Shown in pieces: positions 41,850 through 51,248 of a stretch of 64,000 nt of DNA. The stretch lies in the NCBI GenBank assembly GCA_964644695.1, contig CAZXWN010000001.1:766805-830804 (forward strand), read 5' to 3'. The DNA comes from an uncultured bacterium. Lineage in GTDB: Bacteria; UBP4; UBA4092. The notes below the pieces were generated by a model, which saw nothing but the letters and a program-made list of their open reading frames with translations, made no database searches and was not told the origin of the DNA. Position 1 is the first letter of the stretch. Every line of letters starts with the position of its first letter. Position numbers and translations under genes: made by a program.

Positions 41850-43139
41850 ATGGGAAAGCATATTCGGTTTATAAGATTGTTGACCATCAGTCTGTTTATC
41901 ATGGTCTCCACCTTGGCCTTAAGTGCTGAAAGTCTGGTCTATCGATTAAAAATCAATGGGATTATTGATCCAGTCACTGCGGATTATATTGAACGGGGGA
42001 TCGACACGGGAACCCGTGCTGGAGCAAATGTAATCATCATCGAAATCGATACACCGGGGGGATTGGATTCATCGATGAGGCGAATCACACGATCAATGAT
42101 GAATTCCAGTATTCCTGTTGTAACTTTTGTCAGCCCACGAGGTGCACGGGCGGCATCTGCCGGGATGTTCATTTCACTGGCAGCCCACCGTTCTGCTATG
42201 GCACCAGGTACCAATATCGGCGCAGCTCATCCCGTCTATACATCCGGCGAATCCGCTTCCGATAAAGTAACGGCAGATGCGGCTGCCTATGCAAAAAGCC
42301 TGGCTCAACAGAGAAATCGAAATCCTGAATGGGTAGAACTGTCTGTCACCCGGAGTTCTTCTTTTACAAATGAAGAAGCTCTAAACAATAAAATGATAGA
42401 TTTGATTGCAGATAACATCGATGACCTTCTAAAAAAACTGGATGGGACAGTCATTCCCATGTCGCGGGGAGATGTCATTATCAAAACAGATGGAGCAAAA
42501 GTCTTTGATATTGACATGAGTTTACGAGAATCAATTTTCCATCTTATCTCTAATCCAGATATTGCCTACATTCTGTTGATGATGGCGATTATTGGAATTG
42601 CCATAGAACTGGCAACCCCCGGAATTGGATTCTCAGGCGCCGCGGGCGGTGTTTGTTTTCTGTTATGGTTGGTAGCTTTTGAGGCCCTGCCCTTTAATAT
42701 CGCCGGACTTATTTTAATACTGGCCGGCATGATTCTCTTTATTGTGGAAGCCAAAACACCAACACATGGAACATTAACTGCAGGAGGTGCTTTGTGTTTG
42801 ATTGTAGGTTCCTTTATGCTGTATTCCCCCATAGAACCTTATATCAATATCCGTGTCTCCTGGCCCATCATTATCGTAATGACTTTACTGATGACAGGCC
42901 TGTTTGCCCTTGTCGTTAAAAAAGCAATGGAGGCTATGCGTAAACCCGCAGCATTCGGAACCCATTTATTAATCAATGCTGTTGGAGTCGCAAAAACAAA
43001 TATTGACCCCAAGGGTGTGGTTAACGTTCAAGCGGAGGAATGGAATGCCATCAGTGTGCATGGAGATTTTATTCCCGCAGGTTCTAATGTTCGCGTAACG
43101 AAGATAGACGGATTCACTGTCTATATCGAAAAAGTATAA
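41850..43139 (+). CDS. nfeD: NfeD long-form membrane-bound serine protease
   Basis: IDTPGG, AASAG, PGTNIGAAHP, TM block, C-terminal OB (GVV..AEEWNA). Confidence 0.9.
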   Translation: MGKHIRFIRLLTISLFIMVSTLALSAESLVYRLKINGIIDPVTADYIERGIDTGTRAGANVIIIEIDTPGGLDSSMRRITRSMMNSSIPVVTFVSPRGARAASAGMFISLAAHRSAMAPGTNIGAAHPVYTSGESASDKVTADAAAYAKSLAQQRNRNPEWVELSVTRSSSFTNEEALNNKMIDLIADNIDDLLKKLDGTVIPMSRGDVIIKTDGAKVFDIDMSLRESIFHLISNPDIAYILLMMAIIGIAIELATPGIGFSGAAGGVCFLLWLVAFEALPFNIAGLILILAGMILFIVEAKTPTHGTLTAGGALCLIVGSFMLYSPIEPYINIRVSWPIIIVMTLLMTGLFALVVKKAMEAMRKPAAFGTHLLINAVGVAKTNIDPKGVVNVQAEEWNAISVHGDFIPAGSNVRVTKIDGFTVYIEKV

Positions 43140-43158
43140 ATTAAAAGGAGATATTGCT

Positions 43159-44076
43159 ATGCCCACTACCATTACAGCAAGCTTTGTTATCTTTGTTTTT
43201 TTTATCATCCTGATTGTAATGATGATTGCCACGAACTCCATCAAGATTGTCAGAGATTATCAACGGTTGGTGGTCTTTCGACTTGGTAAATCCGTTGGGA
43301 CAAAAGGTCCTGGTTTGGTTCTGCTGATTCCTTTTATTGATAAACCTATCTGGGTTGAACAGCGAGAAAGTTACATTGAAGTTCCTTCTCAGACATGTAT
43401 CACAAAGGATAATGCTCCTATATCCATTGACTTCCTGATTTACACTAAAGTCGTTGATCCAGAGAGAACCGTCATCCAGGTTTCCAATTATATTGGTGCC
43501 GCTCAGGGTATCGCCATGACCACACTGCGTGCCGTCGTAGGTGATATTATGCTCGATGAAGTGTTGGCCAAGAGAGAACAAATCAATCAGGTCCTCAGAA
43601 CCAAATTGGATGAAGTAACCGAACGATGGGGTGTCAAGGTTACCACGGTTGAAATTCGTGAGATCCAACCGCCTAAAGATGTACAGGATGCCATGACCAA
43701 ACAGATGTCTGCTGAACGCAGCCGTCGTGCCGTAGTCACAGAAGCAGATGGTAAAAAACAATCAGACATCACGGTTGCTGAAGGTGCAAAACAAGCCTCC
43801 ATCCTTCGTGCAGAAGGTGAACGACAGGCCGCCATTTTAAAAGCAGAGGCCGACAGACAAGCCGCCATTCTCCGTGCGGAAGGTTACTCTCTGGCTTTGG
43901 CAAAAATTGCGGAAGTGGCTCGTCAGCTGGACACCAATACCATGGGACTCCAGTATCTGGATACTCTCAAAAACATGGGGTTAAGTCCATCAACCAAGTT
44001 TATATTCCCTATGGAATTTACTCAGTTAATCAAGCCCTTTACTGACAAGCTAAATCAGGATACACCCAAAAACTAA
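43159..44076 (+). CDS. SPFH/stomatin-family protein
   Basis: VVFRLG, GPGL, ITKDN, TTLRAVVG, WGVKV, AERSRRA; follows nfeD. Confidence 0.92.
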   Translation: MPTTITASFVIFVFFIILIVMMIATNSIKIVRDYQRLVVFRLGKSVGTKGPGLVLLIPFIDKPIWVEQRESYIEVPSQTCITKDNAPISIDFLIYTKVVDPERTVIQVSNYIGAAQGIAMTTLRAVVGDIMLDEVLAKREQINQVLRTKLDEVTERWGVKVTTVEIREIQPPKDVQDAMTKQMSAERSRRAVVTEADGKKQSDITVAEGAKQASILRAEGERQAAILKAEADRQAAILRAEGYSLALAKIAEVARQLDTNTMGLQYLDTLKNMGLSPSTKFIFPMEFTQLIKPFTDKLNQDTPKN

Positions 44077-44091
44077 AGAAAACTACATACT

Positions 44092-44138
44092 GAATATGCG
44101 GAAAGCTCAAAGGGAGTTTTCCGCATATTCTTATTTTT
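44092..44138 (+). terminator. Intrinsic terminator
   Basis: gaatatgcggaaa / tttccgcatattc stem plus T tract. Confidence 0.75.
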
Positions 44139-45506: not shown

Positions 45507-45568
45507 TTTTATATATCATGCCTTATGATATTATCAAAACGTAAAACTTACCACGAAGAGGATGGGAT

Positions 45569-47305
45569 ATGGCTGCTTCAATTACTGAAACTCCGAACGA
45601 ATTAACTACTGCTATTGATCTTGCCAGTGCATTGGGTATCGTCCGTTTGTTACGGCAAACTGACAGTCAGATTTATAACGGATATCTTGGTTTCCCGGGA
45701 TTTAATGACCGTGAAGTTTTGGAAGCTATTGCAATGACAATCAAACAGACCCGGCAAATTTTTGCTTCTAAGGGTAAAAAGGTTCTGATTATATCCGGAG
45801 CGGGAACGAGTGGTCGTCTGGGTATGTTTGTGGCACGCGCATACAACAGAACGGTCAAACGCCATTATGGAAAAAACAACTCCATCAAGTTCTTAATTGC
45901 GGGTGGAAACCGTGCATTGCTTGCTGCCCAGGAAATATCAGAAGATGACACACAGTTATCTATTGTGGATTTGGAACAAGCAATCGATGACTGCGATACC
46001 GTTGGATATATTGGTATCACCTGCGGATTTTCTGCACCGTATGTAGCCAGCCAATTGGAATGGTTGTTAGACCGTCTTACTCGGAAAGAAATCAAAGGGT
46101 ACGCATGCCTGATGGGATTCAATCCCGTAGAAAGATCTCGTAACATCCCCATTGAAGGGTATGGAAAAACATTCCTTGATGTGGCCAAAATGGTAGAACA
46201 ATCCCCTTATGGGATTATCCTGAATCCTATTGTCGGACCAGAACCTGTTACAGGATCCACACGAATGAAATCCGGTACATCAACCAAACTTCTACTGGAT
46301 ATGGTGCTGGAATTATCGATTCGAAAAGCAGTGAAAGACCCGATTGAACAAATACGTCATTTCCTCGCTCTCTATGAACAAGCCAGAATGGGTGTATATC
46401 AACAGTCAGAAGAATTGGCAACGCTTATTGAGCAATGCTCTAAAACCATTTCGGCAAAAGGTCGGCTTTATTATATCGGGAAAGCCCCTTATGGAATACT
46501 TGGCTTAATTGATGCCTCAGAATGTCCGCCTACTTTCGGAGCTGGGTTTGAAGATATCCGCGGCTTTATTGAAAATGGCTGGGAATCCATGCTTGGTCGT
46601 GGCGGTGATATGAGTCAGGAAGGTAGTTTATACCGGATTGGTATTAATGAATTTGTTCACGAAAAACTCCCGCATTTAACAAATAAAGATACGATTATTT
46701 TCCTTTCCGAAGGAACACCTGCGACCGCTTTAAAAGCAACTACTAAAATTGGCATCAAAAACCACTGGAGCTGGGAAAAGATTCTCCGTGAATCCCAGAA
46801 AAAGGGAGCTTATACCGCGGCAGTCCTTCTCCAAAAAACTAAACCAGCCGCAGTCAAAAATAACGGGATAAATCAAATCATTACCCCCGTGGTACCCTCC
46901 ACACCCTGTTTCCGTGAAATTGCCATGAAACTCATCCTGAATGCTATTACGACAGGTGCTCATATCCGGGTTGGGAAGGTTTATCGTAACCGCATGGTAG
47001 ATTTAAAAATATCCAATAACAAGCTGTTCTTCCGTACCCAGCATATTATCTGTTCCATCATGAAGGTAGATGAAGAAACCGCGCTGGAAGCCATGTTCCG
47101 TTCTATTTATGAAACAGATACGGTGCCAGATTCAATTCGACATAAAAACATCTCTGAGCACATCCAGAATGCCACAGGAAAAGATAAAGTCGTCCCCAAA
47201 GCTCTTTTATTGGCAACAGGCAAATTTACTTATAAACAGGCGCATGATGCCATAAATCGACAGCCCGTTGTCAGACAGGTAATTCAGGAAGTCTTAGCAA
47301 AGTAA
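45569..47305 (+). CDS. Tandem-SIS protein, glucokinase regulatory protein (GKRP)/MurQ-like
   Basis: ITE.PN.LT..ID, GAGTSGRL, IAGG..AL..E..EDD, GITCG.SAPYV, GPE..TGSTRMK.GT.TK, DASECPPTFG, GKVY.N.MVDL..SN.KL. Confidence 0.8.
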   Translation: MAASITETPNELTTAIDLASALGIVRLLRQTDSQIYNGYLGFPGFNDREVLEAIAMTIKQTRQIFASKGKKVLIISGAGTSGRLGMFVARAYNRTVKRHYGKNNSIKFLIAGGNRALLAAQEISEDDTQLSIVDLEQAIDDCDTVGYIGITCGFSAPYVASQLEWLLDRLTRKEIKGYACLMGFNPVERSRNIPIEGYGKTFLDVAKMVEQSPYGIILNPIVGPEPVTGSTRMKSGTSTKLLLDMVLELSIRKAVKDPIEQIRHFLALYEQARMGVYQQSEELATLIEQCSKTISAKGRLYYIGKAPYGILGLIDASECPPTFGAGFEDIRGFIENGWESMLGRGGDMSQEGSLYRIGINEFVHEKLPHLTNKDTIIFLSEGTPATALKATTKIGIKNHWSWEKILRESQKKGAYTAAVLLQKTKPAAVKNNGINQIITPVVPSTPCFREIAMKLILNAITTGAHIRVGKVYRNRMVDLKISNNKLFFRTQHIICSIMKVDEETALEAMFRSIYETDTVPDSIRHKNISEHIQNATGKDKVVPKALLLATGKFTYKQAHDAINRQPVVRQVIQEVLAK

Positions 47306-47360: not shown

Positions 47361-48278
47361 TTACATCTGATTAATAGCGTTTATATCAACTGTATTTATA
47401 ATCGTCGCTTCCGGCAGAGTCTTTTTAACTAACCCTGACAAGACAACTCCCGACCCTGTTTCAACATACTCTTTAACACCCTGCTGCCACAAATAATTCA
47501 AGGATTCTTCCCAGCGAACAGAGGATACCATTTGTGACATTACCGCAGTTTTCAACTCCACACCATTACATGAGCCAGAAGCAGTCGTATTCGATACCAC
47601 AGGGATAGACGTATTTTTGAATTCCGTTTGCTCCAAGACTTTTTTGAATTCCTCATTAGCGGATTGGATTAAGGGAGAATGAAATGCACCGCTAACCGCC
47701 AGAGGAATAGCTTTTTTCTTCATTTCCTTTAATTTAGAAACTGCGGCCTGGACAGCCTCTTTTTCCCCCGATATGACAATCTGCCCCGGGCAATTATAGT
47801 TAGCAACAACAAGAACCCTCTTCGTTTCATAGGAAACGGCTTCGCAGAGGGAACGAACTTCTTCTGCAGGTAATCCGAGCACGGCAGCCATAGCACCGGG
47901 AACACTTTCACCCACATCATACATTAACTGGCCTCGTTTACACACCAGTTTCAACCCAGTCGCAAAATCAAACGCTCCCGAAGCAGCCAGAGCTGAATAT
48001 TCACCCAGGGAATGTCCGGCAACAAAATCTGGAGTAATCCCTTTTTCCTTCAAAATAGAATAAGCAACATAGCTAACGGTATACAATGCAGGTTGAGAAT
48101 ACCGAGTTTCTTTCAACTTTTCATCTGGCCCGTGAAAACATAAATCACTGAGGGAATATCCGCAGATATCATCAGCAATTTGAAACATTTCTTTGGCGAT
48201 GGGACTCGCTTCATAATAAGATTGCCCCAGGCCAATAGATTGAGATCCCTGGCCGGGGAATAAGAAGACTCTCATCAT
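47361..48278 (-). CDS. fabD: Malonyl-CoA:ACP transacylase
   Basis: FPGQGSQ, QPAL, GHSLGEY, VSGAFHS. Confidence 0.96.
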   Translation of the reverse strand: MMRVFLFPGQGSQSIGLGQSYYEASPIAKEMFQIADDICGYSLSDLCFHGPDEKLKETRYSQPALYTVSYVAYSILKEKGITPDFVAGHSLGEYSALAASGAFDFATGLKLVCKRGQLMYDVGESVPGAMAAVLGLPAEEVRSLCEAVSYETKRVLVVANYNCPGQIVISGEKEAVQAAVSKLKEMKKKAIPLAVSGAFHSPLIQSANEEFKKVLEQTEFKNTSIPVVSNTTASGSCNGVELKTAVMSQMVSSVRWEESLNYLWQQGVKEYVETGSGVVLSGLVKKTLPEATIINTVDINAINQM

Positions 48279-48311
48279 CTTGCACCTCCAAGATAAGTAG
48301 ATATGAAGGGA

Positions 48312-49325
48312 TTACCACTTAATAACGCAGGATCCCCATGTCAGTCCGCCACCAAAAGCCACAAGGACAATATTGTCCCCTTCTTTGATCCGACCCTGCC
48401 GAACCGCTTCGTCTAGGGCGATAGGAATGGAAGCGGCTGAAGTGTTCCCGTATTTCTCAATATTCACCATGACTTTTTCCATGGGGATATTAAACTTTTC
48501 AGCAGAGGCTTTGATTATACGGATATTGGCCTGATGAGGAATCAATAATGCCAGATTATCTGGATGAATATCACAGGACTGCAATGCATGTTCCAGAGAC
48601 TCACCCATAACGCGAATGGCAAATTTATAAACCTCTTTACCATCCATTTGTACACAATTCAACTTTTGTTCAATTGCGAGGGCTGTAATGGGGTTTCGTG
48701 AACCACCTGCGGGTATCCGAATCAGGTCAGCGGCACGGCCATCACTGGCCAGATAATCATATAGAATACCCCGTCCAGGGTTACCATTTCCAAGAACCAC
48801 AGCACCGGCACCGTCACCAAACAGAACACAGGTATTTCGATCTGACCAATCCAGCATCCGAGTCAATACTTCTGAGCCGATGACAAGAGCATATCGATAA
48901 CCATGTCCCAGCATTAAATTTTTAGAAACACTGAGAGCATAAACAAAACCCGTACATGCAGCAGAAAGATCAAAAGCGGCCGCGTTATTAGCACCCAACT
49001 TTTGTTGAACGAAACAAGCAGTTGAAGGTGTTAAATGGTCGGGGGTAAAGGTAGCAACGACTATTAAATCTATTTCCTCAGACTGAATTCCTGCGGCTTG
49101 AATAGCTTGTTCGGCAGCTTTAACCGCCAAATCGGATGTAGCTTCATCTGCCGCCGCAATCCGGCGTTCTTTAATGCCAGTACGCGATGAAATCCACTCA
49201 TCTGTGGTGTCTACTATTTTTTCAAGGTCAGTATTCGTGAGGACTTTTTCCGGAAGGTAAGAACCCGTTCCGATTATAGTAATCCCGCCATTGCGGGAGA
49301 ATTGTAGAGGCTGGAGTTTAGTCAT
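48312..49325 (-). CDS. fabH: 3-oxoacyl-ACP synthase III
   Basis: AACTGF, FGDGAGA, PHQAN, GNTSAAS, FGGGLTWG. Confidence 0.96.
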   Translation of the reverse strand: MTKLQPLQFSRNGGITIIGTGSYLPEKVLTNTDLEKIVDTTDEWISSRTGIKERRIAAADEATSDLAVKAAEQAIQAAGIQSEEIDLIVVATFTPDHLTPSTACFVQQKLGANNAAAFDLSAACTGFVYALSVSKNLMLGHGYRYALVIGSEVLTRMLDWSDRNTCVLFGDGAGAVVLGNGNPGRGILYDYLASDGRAADLIRIPAGGSRNPITALAIEQKLNCVQMDGKEVYKFAIRVMGESLEHALQSCDIHPDNLALLIPHQANIRIIKASAEKFNIPMEKVMVNIEKYGNTSAASIPIALDEAVRQGRIKEGDNIVLVAFGGGLTWGSCVIKW

Positions 49326-49354
49326 ACCGTCTTTCTCAACAGGTTTTGCGGTAT

Positions 49355-49396
49355 AAAAGCAACGGGATAATTATCGTTTGTAAGATAATTATCCCG
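49355..49396 (-). terminator. Hairpin between plsX and fabH (terminator or stabiliser)
   Basis: cgggataattatc / gataattatcccg 13-bp stem with short U tract on minus strand. Confidence 0.55.
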
Positions 49397-49403
49397 CGTC
49401 TTT

Positions 49404-50414
49404 TTAAGATTCCATTACCGGTTTTATCTCATCGGCAATGTGTTGATTTACATTTTGAATGACCGCCTGAGAAGCTAAGCGAATTGCATTAGCAATAGCT
49501 TTTCCATTAGAGCGGCCGTGACAAATAATGATCGTGCCATTAATTCCCATCAAGGGAGCACCACCATATTCAGCGTAGTCTACTTTCTTTTTGAACCGGC
49601 TAAAAGCATCCATCATAGGCCGTGCGGACTCCGCATTAGCCATGACTAAGGGTGCCATTTCAGCCTTCAAGGAGTTCATGATCATTTCGGCAAATCCTTC
49701 ACCAAATTTCAGCAGGATATTACCTACAAATCCATCACAAACCACGACATCCACTTTACCACGCGGAATGTCTTTGCCTTCGACATTACCAATGAAGTTA
49801 ATATCTGCGGCTTCCAGTAATTCATACGTCTTACTGGTCAGGTCATTGCCCTTCTCTTTTTCTTCACCAATACTGAGAAGGCCGACAGTAGGATTTTCCT
49901 GTCCCATGACCCGTTCCGAAAAAACTTTACCCATAATGGCAAAGTGGAGCAAATGTTGGGGGCGGCAATCTACATTGGCACCGATATCCACAACAATGCA
50001 AGGTTTTTGTTCGAGAGTAGGCATTGATCCAGAGATAGCAGGGCGACTGATACCGGGTAACCGTCCTAATGTAAAAAGACTGGCACCCATAACAGCACCA
50101 GTATTACCTGCCGAGACCAATGCGTCTGCTTCACCCCGTTTGACCAAATCCATGGCCACGAGAATGGAACAGTTCTTTTTCTGTTTTAGAGCTTGTGCGG
50201 GTGATTCATCCATTCCAATCACTTCATCCGCATGGACAATAGAGATCTTAGGATGACTCGAAACACCCGCCTTCAGCATTTCTTCACGAATGACAGATTC
50301 TCTGCCAACCAGAATTATCGAATCAATTTCAGGTTTATCGGCCGCAATCAAGGCACCGGCGATTTCAGCGCTCGGAGCCTGATCCGTACCCATTGCGTCT
50401 AAAGCAATTCTCAT
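49404..50414 (-). CDS. plsX: Phosphate acyltransferase PlsX
   Basis: IALDAMG.D, SAGNTGA, DIGANVD, GEEKEKG, DGFVGN, YGGAPLMG, HGRS. Confidence 0.96.
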   Translation of the reverse strand: MRIALDAMGTDQAPSAEIAGALIAADKPEIDSIILVGRESVIREEMLKAGVSSHPKISIVHADEVIGMDESPAQALKQKKNCSILVAMDLVKRGEADALVSAGNTGAVMGASLFTLGRLPGISRPAISGSMPTLEQKPCIVVDIGANVDCRPQHLLHFAIMGKVFSERVMGQENPTVGLLSIGEEKEKGNDLTSKTYELLEAADINFIGNVEGKDIPRGKVDVVVCDGFVGNILLKFGEGFAEMIMNSLKAEMAPLVMANAESARPMMDAFSRFKKKVDYAEYGGAPLMGINGTIIICHGRSNGKAIANAIRLASQAVIQNVNQHIADEIKPVMES

Positions 50415-50448
50415 GTTTGATTTCCCCGGACTAATTCAGGGAACCAGA

Positions 50449-50625
50449 TTAGTCGAGGTCCACAACCTGAACAGATTTGTAAAACCCACAAGAATTACAT
50501 GCCCGATGCGGCATCTTGGCTGTTCCACAACGAGGGCAAGTGGATAATGCTACATTTTTAATCTTATCTTGGGCCTTACGACTGCGTTTTTTGGACTTAA
50601 ATACTCTTCTTTTAGGAACTGGCAT
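50449..50625 (-). CDS. rpmF: 50S ribosomal protein L32 (58 aa, absent from ORF track)
   Basis: My translation: MPVPKRRVFKSKKRSRKAQDKIKNVALSTCPRCGTAKMPHRACNSCGFYKSVQVVDLD; GGAGG RBS; yceD-rpmF-plsX synteny. Confidence 0.95.
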   Translation of the reverse strand: MPVPKRRVFKSKKRSRKAQDKIKNVALSTCPRCGTAKMPHRACNSCGFYKSVQVVDLD

Positions 50626-50649
50626 TTGTTTCTACCTCCAGAATAAGCG

Positions 50650-51171
50650 CTAATTCAATTTAATGTTTTTCAATTGATCAAAAGGATGAGGTTCTTCCTC
50701 ATCCCGGCATTGGCACTGCATAACATTTCTGTTACTACCGCATTGTGGACATAAACCACGACAGGACTCACTACAGAGAGGCTGCATCGGGATACTCAGC
50801 ACTAAACACTCGGCTATTTGCTGATCCAAGTCCAAATCAGCACCCCGATAATACACAACATCCAACTCTTCTTCAGCCAGTTCCTTTTCGTCACTTGAAT
50901 AGTTGACCTGGGGATCTGGCTCATAGTTACAAAGATAATCACCATCCAGCACTGTTTCTACAGGCTCAAGACAACGGCTACAGGATAACATCGCCTTGCA
51001 CTGAATATGCCCCGTAACAGTAATACGGTCATCATGCCGAAATATTTCGATTTTAACCGAAATAGGTGTTGTCAAAGAAGGGATATCTCGATTGCTTGCG
51101 AAGGTATCCGCAGGCAACTGAAATTCCTTTACTGTCTGACCATCTTGAAGGGTCGTTAAATTCAATTTCAT
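50650..51171 (-). CDS. yceD: YceD/DUF177 protein
   Basis: CSRCL, PMQPLCSESCRGLCPQCG; canonical position before rpmF. Confidence 0.92.
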   Translation of the reverse strand: MKLNLTTLQDGQTVKEFQLPADTFASNRDIPSLTTPISVKIEIFRHDDRITVTGHIQCKAMLSCSRCLEPVETVLDGDYLCNYEPDPQVNYSSDEKELAEEELDVVYYRGADLDLDQQIAECLVLSIPMQPLCSESCRGLCPQCGSNRNVMQCQCRDEEEPHPFDQLKNIKLN

Positions 51172-51248
51172 ATTATTCACCAACCGGCTTGTTTTATCAA
51201 TTCACCAACTGGCCAACCCCTTCGGATTAGTTTACATACAGAATTAAA

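Follow-up and report, generated by a model that had tools for sequence, protein, structure and literature searches.

A gene in a stretch of DNA from an uncultured bacterium (GTDB lineage Bacteria; UBP4; UBA4092) encodes a full-length relative of the glucokinase regulatory protein (GKRP or GCKR) of animals, and the protein is most probably a fused, pseudo-dimeric etherase for the 6-phosphate of N-acetylmuramic acid (MurNAc-6-P) and the only enzyme of the MurQ class in the organism. The stretch, hereafter the window, comprises 64,000 nucleotides (nt) of contig CAZXWN010000001.1 (GenBank assembly GCA_964644695.1, positions 766,805 to 830,804), and the gene lies on its forward strand. GKRP, whose gene is a locus of human metabolic traits, is a textbook example of an enzyme that became a regulator; its descent from MurQ is well established, and both Pfam and automatic annotation recognise the family. 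What is said below on catalysis, on the substrate and on where the MurNAc comes from is inferred, the conversion of MurNAc-6-P from the residues of the protein, the genome context and the displacement of MurQ.

Profile searches identified all the three GKRP domains in the protein. GKRP_SIS_N (PF22645) matched residues 60-166 with 111.3 bits against a cut-off of 27 (E-value 2.8e-32), GKRP_SIS_2 (PF22198) matched residues 277-379 with 92.7 bits against a cut-off of 27 (E 3.1e-26; profile positions 1-103 of 191) and GKRP-like_C (PF20741) matched residues 473-572 with 106 bits against a cut-off of 27.7 (E 1.6e-30; profile positions 1-100 of 100). A phmmer search against all PDB sequences gave a single collinear alignment of residues 4-573 to residues 29-601 of Xenopus GKRP (3w0l_B, E 7.7e-91), and residues 2-576 were collinear with human GKRP (E 1.4e-81); the MurQ structures in the same search were matched in two to three pieces with E-values of 4.5e-22 to 4e-19. 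An AlphaFold model built on 30 homologues (pLDDT 90.1, pTM 0.91) was superposed on the Xenopus structure 3w0l_B and on the human one that has fructose 1-phosphate bound (F1P; 4bb9), with a TM-score of 0.86 and 29-30% identity over 592-594 aligned columns (592 columns and a root-mean-square deviation of 3.4 for 3w0l_B), while MurQ monomers covered one half of the model (TMq 0.33). The protein is thus a member of the three-domain GKRP/GCKR family, with both SIS domains, the lid, the collinear alignment, the shared fold and the composite sugar-phosphate site. The MurQ models of NCBIfam were matched in pieces, and the subfamily model NF003915 was the only one passed (197.4 against 168). By its score and by its build, which is not that of a single-SIS homodimer of about 300 amino acids (aa), the protein falls outside the MurQ equivalog, and it shares with MurQ the two glutamates.

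The features of the gene, all on the forward strand and numbered along the window, are the following.

45558..45562, +: Shine-Dalgarno-like GAGGA, 6 nt before the ATG of the GKRP-like gene, by direct sequence reading
45569..47305, +: GKRP-like gene P0001, 578 codons and stop, ATG start, from the open reading frame listing and translation
45569..46354, +: first MurQ-like half, residues 1-262, N-terminal helix and SIS-1; PF22645 at residues 60-166; residues 6-253 align to MurQ 8-215
45797..45820, +: GAGTSGRL phosphate-binding loop, residues 77-84, invariant in 30/30 bacterial homologues
45929..45949, +: QEISEDD, residues 121-127, with E122, E125 and D126 invariant
46253..46270, +: GSTRMK, the SIS-1 sugar-phosphate loop, residues 229-234, aligned to MurQ GSTRMK, with G229, S230, T231, R232 and M233 invariant
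46355..46918, +: second MurQ-like half, residues 263-450 (SIS-2, divergent in the middle); PF22198 at residues 277-379; residues 286-516 align to MurQ 51-264
46508..46540, +: IDASECPPTFG, residues 314-324, with D315, A316, E318, C319, P320, P321 and T322 invariant in 30 bacterial homologues
46919..47302, +: C-terminal lid, residues 451-578, in which K454, H465, GK470 and ISNNKLFFR lie; PF20741 at residues 473-572

Further motifs are IVRLLRQTDSQI at residues 24-35, GFNPVERSRNIPIE at 183-196, FGAGFEDIRGF at 323-333 and KLILNAITTGAHIRVGK at 454-470.

BLASTP against one Cytobacillus MurQ (locus L036) gave two separate alignments, one for each half and each with 31% identity. The first half keeps GAGTSGRLG, the EGAED-type QEISEDD and GSTRMK, and carries MFVARAYNRT in place of the MurQ IIDASECPPT. 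In the second half LIDASECPPTFG and the lid are preserved, with GKAPYGILG replacing GAGTSGRLG and GRGGDMSQEG replacing EGAEDDSEQG. Its DASECPPT motif is identical to that of MurQ; divergence is seen in the middle of SIS-2, at about residues 340-450. The decay of the two halves is complementary and leaves one composite active site, which has both MurQ catalytic glutamates, E125 and E318, and all the sugar-phosphate ligands of GKRP. In the BLASTP alignment, E125 corresponds to the second Glu of the MurQ EGAED and E318 to the Glu of the MurQ DASE; we take their counterparts in Escherichia coli MurQ to be the catalytic glutamates E114 and E83, respectively. Counted along the phmmer alignment, T80/S81, E125, E318, K485 and R489 fall on human GKRP T109/S110, E153, E348, K514 and R518, which are presumably the ligand-binding residues of the GKRP-F1P structure.

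The gene had been singled out in an earlier reading of the letters and translations (hereafter the sequence-only reading), and most of what was said there agrees with these results. The length of 578 aa and the motifs quoted were all found in their places in the translation, and the lack of DASECPPT in the first half and of GTSGR in the second was borne out by BLASTP of both halves against the Cytobacillus MurQ. The likeness to GKRP rather than MurQ that had been stated there extends collinearly over the full length of the Xenopus and human proteins, with MurQ aligned in pieces only, and the overlay on the F1P-bound structure that had been proposed gave the TM-score of 0.86 for the predicted model. 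A single-chain pseudodimer keeping both catalytic glutamates in one composite site is what the domains, the alignment, the fold and BLASTP jointly indicate. The split active site, to which attention had been drawn, is present and is nothing special to this protein, being the standard GKRP arrangement, invariant in the 131 representatives described below.

In the proposed mechanism, the first half would provide the phosphate loop GAGTSGRL, the acid/base glutamate E125 and the GSTRMK loop, the second half would provide the glutamate E318 of DASECPPT, and the lid would provide K485 and R489. The resulting single site would correspond to one of the two sites in the MurQ homodimer, the mirror-image site having decayed. 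MurNAc from turnover of the cell's own wall or from scavenged peptidoglycan would be phosphorylated by a MurK-like kinase, and the GKRP-like enzyme would cleave the D-lactyl ether of MurNAc-6-P to give N-acetylglucosamine 6-phosphate (GlcNAc-6-P) and D-lactate. NagA and NagB would then carry GlcNAc-6-P on to fructose 6-phosphate (Fru-6-P) or to amino-sugar synthesis.

The genome containing the window (3.07 Mb in 28 contigs, 98.67% complete) was searched for the components of this pathway. No separate murQ was found in it, as the sequence-only reading had proposed to check: the strong TIGR00274 matches were to the GKRP-like gene itself only, and the weak remaining matches fell on different SIS proteins, among them one on contig C4 that Pfam identifies as GlmS. 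Searches for AnmK, GH3 NagZ, the EIIC component of a phosphotransferase system (PTS) and MupG found none of them in this genome. A 355-aa kinase of the BadF/BadG type is encoded, whose best solved relative (8zo3, E 1e-39, aligned end to end) is annotated as N-acetylmuramic acid/N-acetylglucosamine kinase. A SpoIID/LytB-domain gene starts 20 nt after this MurK-like kinase gene, with a HAD hydrolase gene divergent upstream (G000:C11:17408-19802, locus L108:8409-10803), and the kinase and SpoIID/LytB genes look like a small peptidoglycan-salvage unit. The MurK-like kinase was present in all five of the other fused-gene-bearing genomes tested. NagA (353 bits against a cut-off of 225.65) and NagB (303.5 bits against an equivalog cut-off of 236.9) are encoded by adjacent genes with GlmS nearby. 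Since MurK-like, NagA and NagB proteins are present and no other MurQ is found, the route from MurNAc through MurNAc-6-P, GlcNAc-6-P and glucosamine 6-phosphate to Fru-6-P would be complete only if the GKRP-like protein were the etherase. MurB is also present (G000:C4:14971-15801, locus L110), its match lying inside an open frame of 766 aa; the gene may thus be fused to a second one, perhaps for a further Mur enzyme. As a separate observation, a gene for an AbiEii-type nucleotidyltransferase toxin adjoins glmS and the nagB-nagA pair (G000:C4:127483-128373, L109:5484-6374).

The distribution of the fused form and of MurQ was examined in three sets of genomes. Among 41 genomes, the window's own and 40 relatives, a full-length fused gene was found in seven, with exactly one match each, including all five members of the window's class-level group; seven others gave weak, piecewise matches, mostly to MurQ-sized frames. 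The second set consisted of 75 genomes of the phylum of G034, a genome whose protein is identical to a cluster labelled Sumerlaeaceae (Sumerlaeota) by NCBI. The fused form was found in 48 of these (E 2.9e-64 or better) and MurQ-type matches only in 14 (E 1e-6 to 1e-10); of the rest, G048 has the fused form in two frames, G111 is ambiguous and 11 are without any match. Both forms together were found in none of the 75 genomes. In G048 the GKRP-like matches are split over frames of 483 and 201 aa with much weaker scores (G048:C921:7927-9689), and the gene may be broken or very divergent. For the third set, 101 genomes were sampled evenly from the class to which a Phycisphaerae metagenome-assembled genome (MAG) with a fused gene belongs. 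The fused form was confined here to that MAG (1/101), which has no extra MurQ, while MurQ-type matches were found in 62/101 and none in 38/101. The mutual exclusion is informative because the query demonstrably detects MurQ, and it seems that either form can take the place of the other. As related genomes are not independent, the pattern is given without a statistic.

The fused proteins constitute a sizeable family. A word-indexed search of 5.8 billion proteins, in which 8000 candidates were scored, gave 1066 candidates with E<=1e-10. The best 120 of these all have the three GKRP domains and a length of 561-669 aa, and are 38-59% identical to the query, whose own cluster was counted apart; the named sources among them are Sumerlaeota (7), Phycisphaerae (5), Planctomycetota (1) and 'bacterium' (2). 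An exhaustive phmmer search of 1.84 billion representatives at 50% identity gave 3636 matches with E<=1e-3, of which 1317 reached 1e-10 and 411 reached 1e-30. Fused bacterial proteins are labelled 'hypothetical protein' by NCBI and 'MurNAc-6-P etherase' by JGI. In the alignment of 30 bacterial homologues, the invariant positions comprise, besides the entire GAGTSGRL loop, GSTRM and the residues of QEISEDD and DASECPPT listed above, K454, N458, H465, G469, K470, K485 and R489. A wider set was formed by those of the best 150 representatives that are 520-850 aa long (131 proteins), and E122, E125, D126, S230, R232, D315, E318, T322 and K454 are kept in all the 131. The CPP that follows the Glu is typical of the bacterial rows of this set, and MVD, MPD, CVP or TVP stand there in many other rows, including many eukaryotic ones. 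Twenty representatives were looked up by name, of which ten are without an organism name and ten are eukaryotic (Cavenderia, Balamuthia, Nolandella, Thecamonas, Salpingoeca, Diaphanoeca, Owenia, Branchiostoma, Mesostigma and one unnamed eukaryote). In the protein atlas, bacterial clusters with GKRP_SIS_N were observed in Aminicenantota (681 aa), Lentisphaerota (558 aa) and Pseudomonadota (521 aa), most of whose members lack GKRP_SIS_2 and GKRP-like_C; they may represent additional MurQ-derived architectures.

In a scan of genomic contigs in which [IV]DASECPPT was one of the patterns, mostly ordinary MurQ was retrieved, the fused form being present in two of the 80 loci kept (L015 and L016); these loci also supplied the MurQ outgroups for the trees below. 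In four of eight loci from other genomes, a peptidoglycan-cleaving enzyme is encoded beside or near the fused gene. An AmiA-like amidase gene (L102:9734-10858, genome G032) overlaps the stop codon of the GKRP-like gene; a 711-aa fusion of Amidase_3 and beta-lactamase2 is divergently adjacent in the Phycisphaerae MAG (L015:1805-3940); an M23 peptidase is encoded in L101; and L016 has genes for two such proteins, one RlpA-like with a DPBB domain and one of the beta-lactamase family.

Several observations weigh against the assignment as a MurNAc-6-P etherase and sole MurQ-class enzyme. The protein does not reach the cut-offs of the MurQ equivalog models, with 181.4 against 302 for TIGR00274 and 183.7 against 255 for NF009222. 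About 1.3% of the marker genes of the genome are unaccounted for, so that a murQ in unassembled sequence is conceivable. AnmK and NagZ, which are among the genes not found in the window's genome, are usual Gram-negative recycling genes, so that the supply route of free MurNAc remains putative. The neighbours of the gene in the window (a CNNM/CorC gene upstream and a convergent fabD) are not related to peptidoglycan. Four further Sumerlaeota loci with nameable neighbours hold no peptidoglycan enzymes, the neighbours there being ribosomal and rpoA genes, phosphoenolpyruvate carboxykinase, glycosyltransferases and a response regulator, and the neighbourhood of the fused gene is not conserved across loci. 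One more locus, L113, whose called frames gave no Pfam matches, was set aside. Finally, the etherase measurements refer to eukaryotic members of the family.

The sequence-only reading had left the choice between an active etherase and a sugar-phosphate sensor undecided, and the evidence favours the former. As a sensor or regulator of the vertebrate kind, the protein would bind a sugar phosphate in a vestigial site and control a partner, e.g. a sugar kinase, with little or no catalysis. Vertebrate GKRP, with the same fold and ligand site, works in this manner, the GKRP site binds fructose 6-phosphate, F1P and sorbitol 6-phosphate according to the accessible part of a 2026 preprint (10.64898/2026.05.08.723886), and the window gene stands outside any peptidoglycan-recycling operon. 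However, both catalytic glutamates and the exact MurQ DASECPPT are invariant across the bacterial homologues, which argues for selection for catalysis; the fused form and MurQ are mutually exclusive across genomes, as expected of proteins doing the same job; and no kinase gene is adjacent. In the accessible text of the preprint, the origin of GCK inhibition is placed in the jawed vertebrates alone, and the GKRPs of non-vertebrates are described as active etherases (10.64898/2026.05.08.723886). The same portion of that source reports MurNAc-6-P etherase activity for lancelet GKRP and for the reconstructed ancestors of chordates, vertebrates and gnathostomes, rat GKRP being inactive, with a kcat/Km of about 1493 per M per s for the lancelet protein against 3140 for E. 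coli MurQ, and it relates that Naegleria and frog GKRP were found active by Veiga-da-Cunha 2009 (10.64898/2026.05.08.723886). A sensor with little or no catalysis is accordingly considered very improbable.

An active enzyme of the MurQ/GKRP class might also have another substrate, such as some other 3-O-substituted or modified amino-sugar phosphate, or catalyse an isomerase or lyase reaction unrelated to MurNAc. The sub-threshold equivalog scores, the divergent middle of SIS-2 and the window neighbourhood would all fit such an enzyme, as would the atlas clusters that carry GKRP_SIS_N in other architectures and are automatically named 'sugar phosphate isomerase family'. On the other hand, all the GKRP ligand-contact residues and the MurQ-defining motifs are conserved, MurQ is absent while MurK-like, NagA and NagB proteins are present, and eukaryotic proteins of the same architecture use MurNAc-6-P in the accessible part of the preprint (10.64898/2026.05.08.723886). 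A different substrate or reaction is hence regarded as unlikely, and cleavage of MurNAc-6-P remains the strongly preferred function.

The origin of the fusion was examined by cutting 84 fused proteins at query residue 262 and aligning each half with 16 MurQs, which were retained from 20 extracted open reading frames after dropping two near-duplicates, one truncated and one over-extended sequence. The fused proteins are united in either half-tree, apart from the 16 MurQs (support 100), and the N- and C-terminal halves each fall with their counterparts from other GKRP-like proteins; the base is unresolved in the N-half and C-half trees alike. Since the fused proteins stand together against MurQ in both trees, the fusion arose once. 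A recent duplication of ordinary MurQ, with no collinear alignment to GKRP, had been named in the sequence-only reading as the finding that would speak against it. Such a duplication is ruled out by the grouping of the halves with matching GKRP-like halves apart from MurQ, and the phmmer alignment is of full length.

The two halves were then analysed as a concatenated alignment of 555 columns, with MurQ used in both parts. A quick tree of 98 rows placed long eukaryotic rows at the base. Holding ten named eukaryotes together raised its log-likelihood by 39.9 and holding 15 named bacteria together raised it by 38.6 (p-values of the approximately unbiased test, p-AU, 0.914 and 0.897); with both constrained trees about 39 log-likelihood units higher, this topology was a poor optimum and was set aside. 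A careful tree was inferred for 60 rows under LG+C20+F+G4 by posterior mean site frequencies (PMSF), with ultrafast bootstrap and SH-aLRT supports, and rooted on MurQ; the rows were picked after sight of the earlier trees, and long unnamed rows were left out. The fused proteins again form one group (100/100), joined to MurQ by a very long outgroup branch. The base of the group consists of unresolved bacterial lineages, namely the window's group with several Sumerlaeota (87/87), Phycisphaerae (100/100), Sumerlaeaceae (100/100), the G032 group (100/100) and others. Nine of the ten named eukaryotes fall into one clade together with a Sumerlaeia protein, P0098 (100/98). The tenth, P0218 (Eukaryota sp. 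TZLM3-RCL), is on a long branch outside the main eukaryotic clade with P0141 and P0143 (92/84), which are 56-65% identical to proteins of the Sumerlaeota families f51 and f53; its placement could be a separate transfer or long-branch attraction. In the best tree the eukaryotic GKRPs are thus nested within bacterial diversity. When 14 named bacteria were forced into one clade, the tree was 15.3 log-likelihood units worse and was not rejected (p-AU 0.109).

A tentative account of these patterns, by a small margin the likelier one, is that the duplication and unequal fusion of murQ occurred in bacteria, that the Sumerlaeota-type and the window's lineages keep the ancestral intact form, and that eukaryotes, and ultimately vertebrate glucose sensing, obtained it by horizontal transfer. 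If this were true, the window gene would be a present-day proxy of the animal GKRP ancestor and not a side branch. The transfer may instead have run the other way, a eukaryotic GKRP-type etherase having entered bacteria (Sumerlaeota, some Phycisphaerae and the window's lineage) once or a few times and displaced MurQ, in which case the bacterial genes would not be ancestral. The patchy bacterial spread (1/101 Phycisphaerae, 7/41 relatives) is in keeping with such an entry, as is the range of the named eukaryotic members over Amoebozoa, choanoflagellates, animals, an apusomonad and a streptophyte alga; long eukaryotic rows were basal in the quick tree, and a single bacterial clade was rejected in neither the quick nor the careful analysis. 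Against it stand the unresolved bacterial base of the careful MurQ-rooted tree, with nine of ten eukaryotes and a Sumerlaeia protein in one clade, the loss of 15.3 log-likelihood units on uniting the bacteria, and the exact MurQ CPP kept by the bacterial proteins where many eukaryotic rows have MVD, MPD, CVP or TVP. Transfer from eukaryotes into bacteria is, on this evidence, rather doubtful. The suggestion in the sequence-only reading of an intermediate between MurQ and animal GKRP therefore needs modification: the protein is not unique, being one member of a large bacterial clade, and an ancestral position is favoured by the best tree while statistically unsettled.

The surroundings of the gene in the window were inspected as well. 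The antisense strand of 45569-47305 is interrupted by many stops. The upstream neighbours encode TypA, NfeD, SPFH and CNNM/CorC proteins, and FabD, FabH, PlsX and YceD are encoded downstream on the opposite strand; no sugar kinase or PTS gene adjoins the gene among these window neighbours, as had been stated in the sequence-only reading. The CNNM/CorC-type transporter gene lies 62 nt upstream of the GKRP-like gene, and a CNNM-type neighbour recurs in the relative G001. No terminator-like site was found between the two genes, the nearest being at 44092-44130, upstream of the CNNM gene; the two genes, both past this hairpin, may form one transcription unit. The hairpin, a strong terminator-like structure with a 17-bp stem, follows a pair of genes for NfeD (429 aa) and SPFH/Band 7 (305 aa) proteins (window 41850-44130). 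The conserved fabD-fabH-plsX-yceD cluster (window 47361-51183, reverse strand) converges on the GKRP-like gene, and fabD/fabH neighbours are seen again in the relatives G001 and G002.

Among the known proteins, the closest counterparts in design are the non-vertebrate eukaryotic GKRP-type etherases, such as those of Naegleria gruberi and the lancelet, which share the SIS-1/SIS-2/lid architecture, a length of about 580-630 aa and the composite site with both glutamates; the window protein is 39% identical to the Branchiostoma representative P0142 and 41% identical to the Cavenderia representative P0138. It differs from them in keeping the exact MurQ ECPPT, which varies in many eukaryotic rows, and in its host, a peptidoglycan-making bacterium. 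As the host makes its own peptidoglycan (MurB being present), the likely role would be recycling or scavenging of wall sugars and not digestion of prey. Vertebrate GCKR (4bb9, 4lc9, 3w0l) is collinear over the full length, with the fold at TM-scores of 0.81-0.86, 29-30% identity and conserved ligand-contact positions. The window protein lacks its N-terminal extension of about 25 residues, starting at human residue 27, and has P321 where human GKRP has H351; vertebrate GKRP has lost most or all of the etherase activity. There is no reason to expect glucokinase binding by the window protein, this being a trait of jawed vertebrates according to the accessible part of the preprint (10.64898/2026.05.08.723886). 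Compared with bacterial MurQ (a homodimer of about 300 aa; 4lzj, 4s12, 1nri), for which the same reaction is proposed, the GTSGRL, EGAED-type, GSTRMK, DASECPPT and lid K/R motifs are spread over two halves of one 578-aa chain, with one active site instead of two, and a branch with support 100 separates the protein from the 16 MurQs.

The literature searched holds no description of bacterial full-length GKRP-type proteins; Veiga-da-Cunha 2009 (Biochem J) and the supplements of the 2026 preprints, which lay outside that search, may bear on this point. Sumerlaeota was never combined with etherase, MurQ or GKRP in the literature searched, and 'GKRP-like', 'GCKR-like' and 'GKRP homolog' occur there in work on eukaryotes only. 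The GKRP phylogeny of 2026 comprises 98 sequences from amoebae and Holozoa, with no mention of bacteria.

The fused form is common in bacteria, keeps the catalytic residues and replaces MurQ genome by genome, and thus offers a testable outgroup for the account of GKRP as an enzyme that became a regulator. The bacterial fused proteins would also be easily expressed material for studies of ancestral states and mechanism. Given the NCBI label 'hypothetical', MurQ would be counted as absent, in error, whenever peptidoglycan recycling is reconstructed for Sumerlaeota and lineages related to them. In the organism of the window itself, the GKRP-like protein would close the route formed by MurK, the etherase, NagA and NagB.

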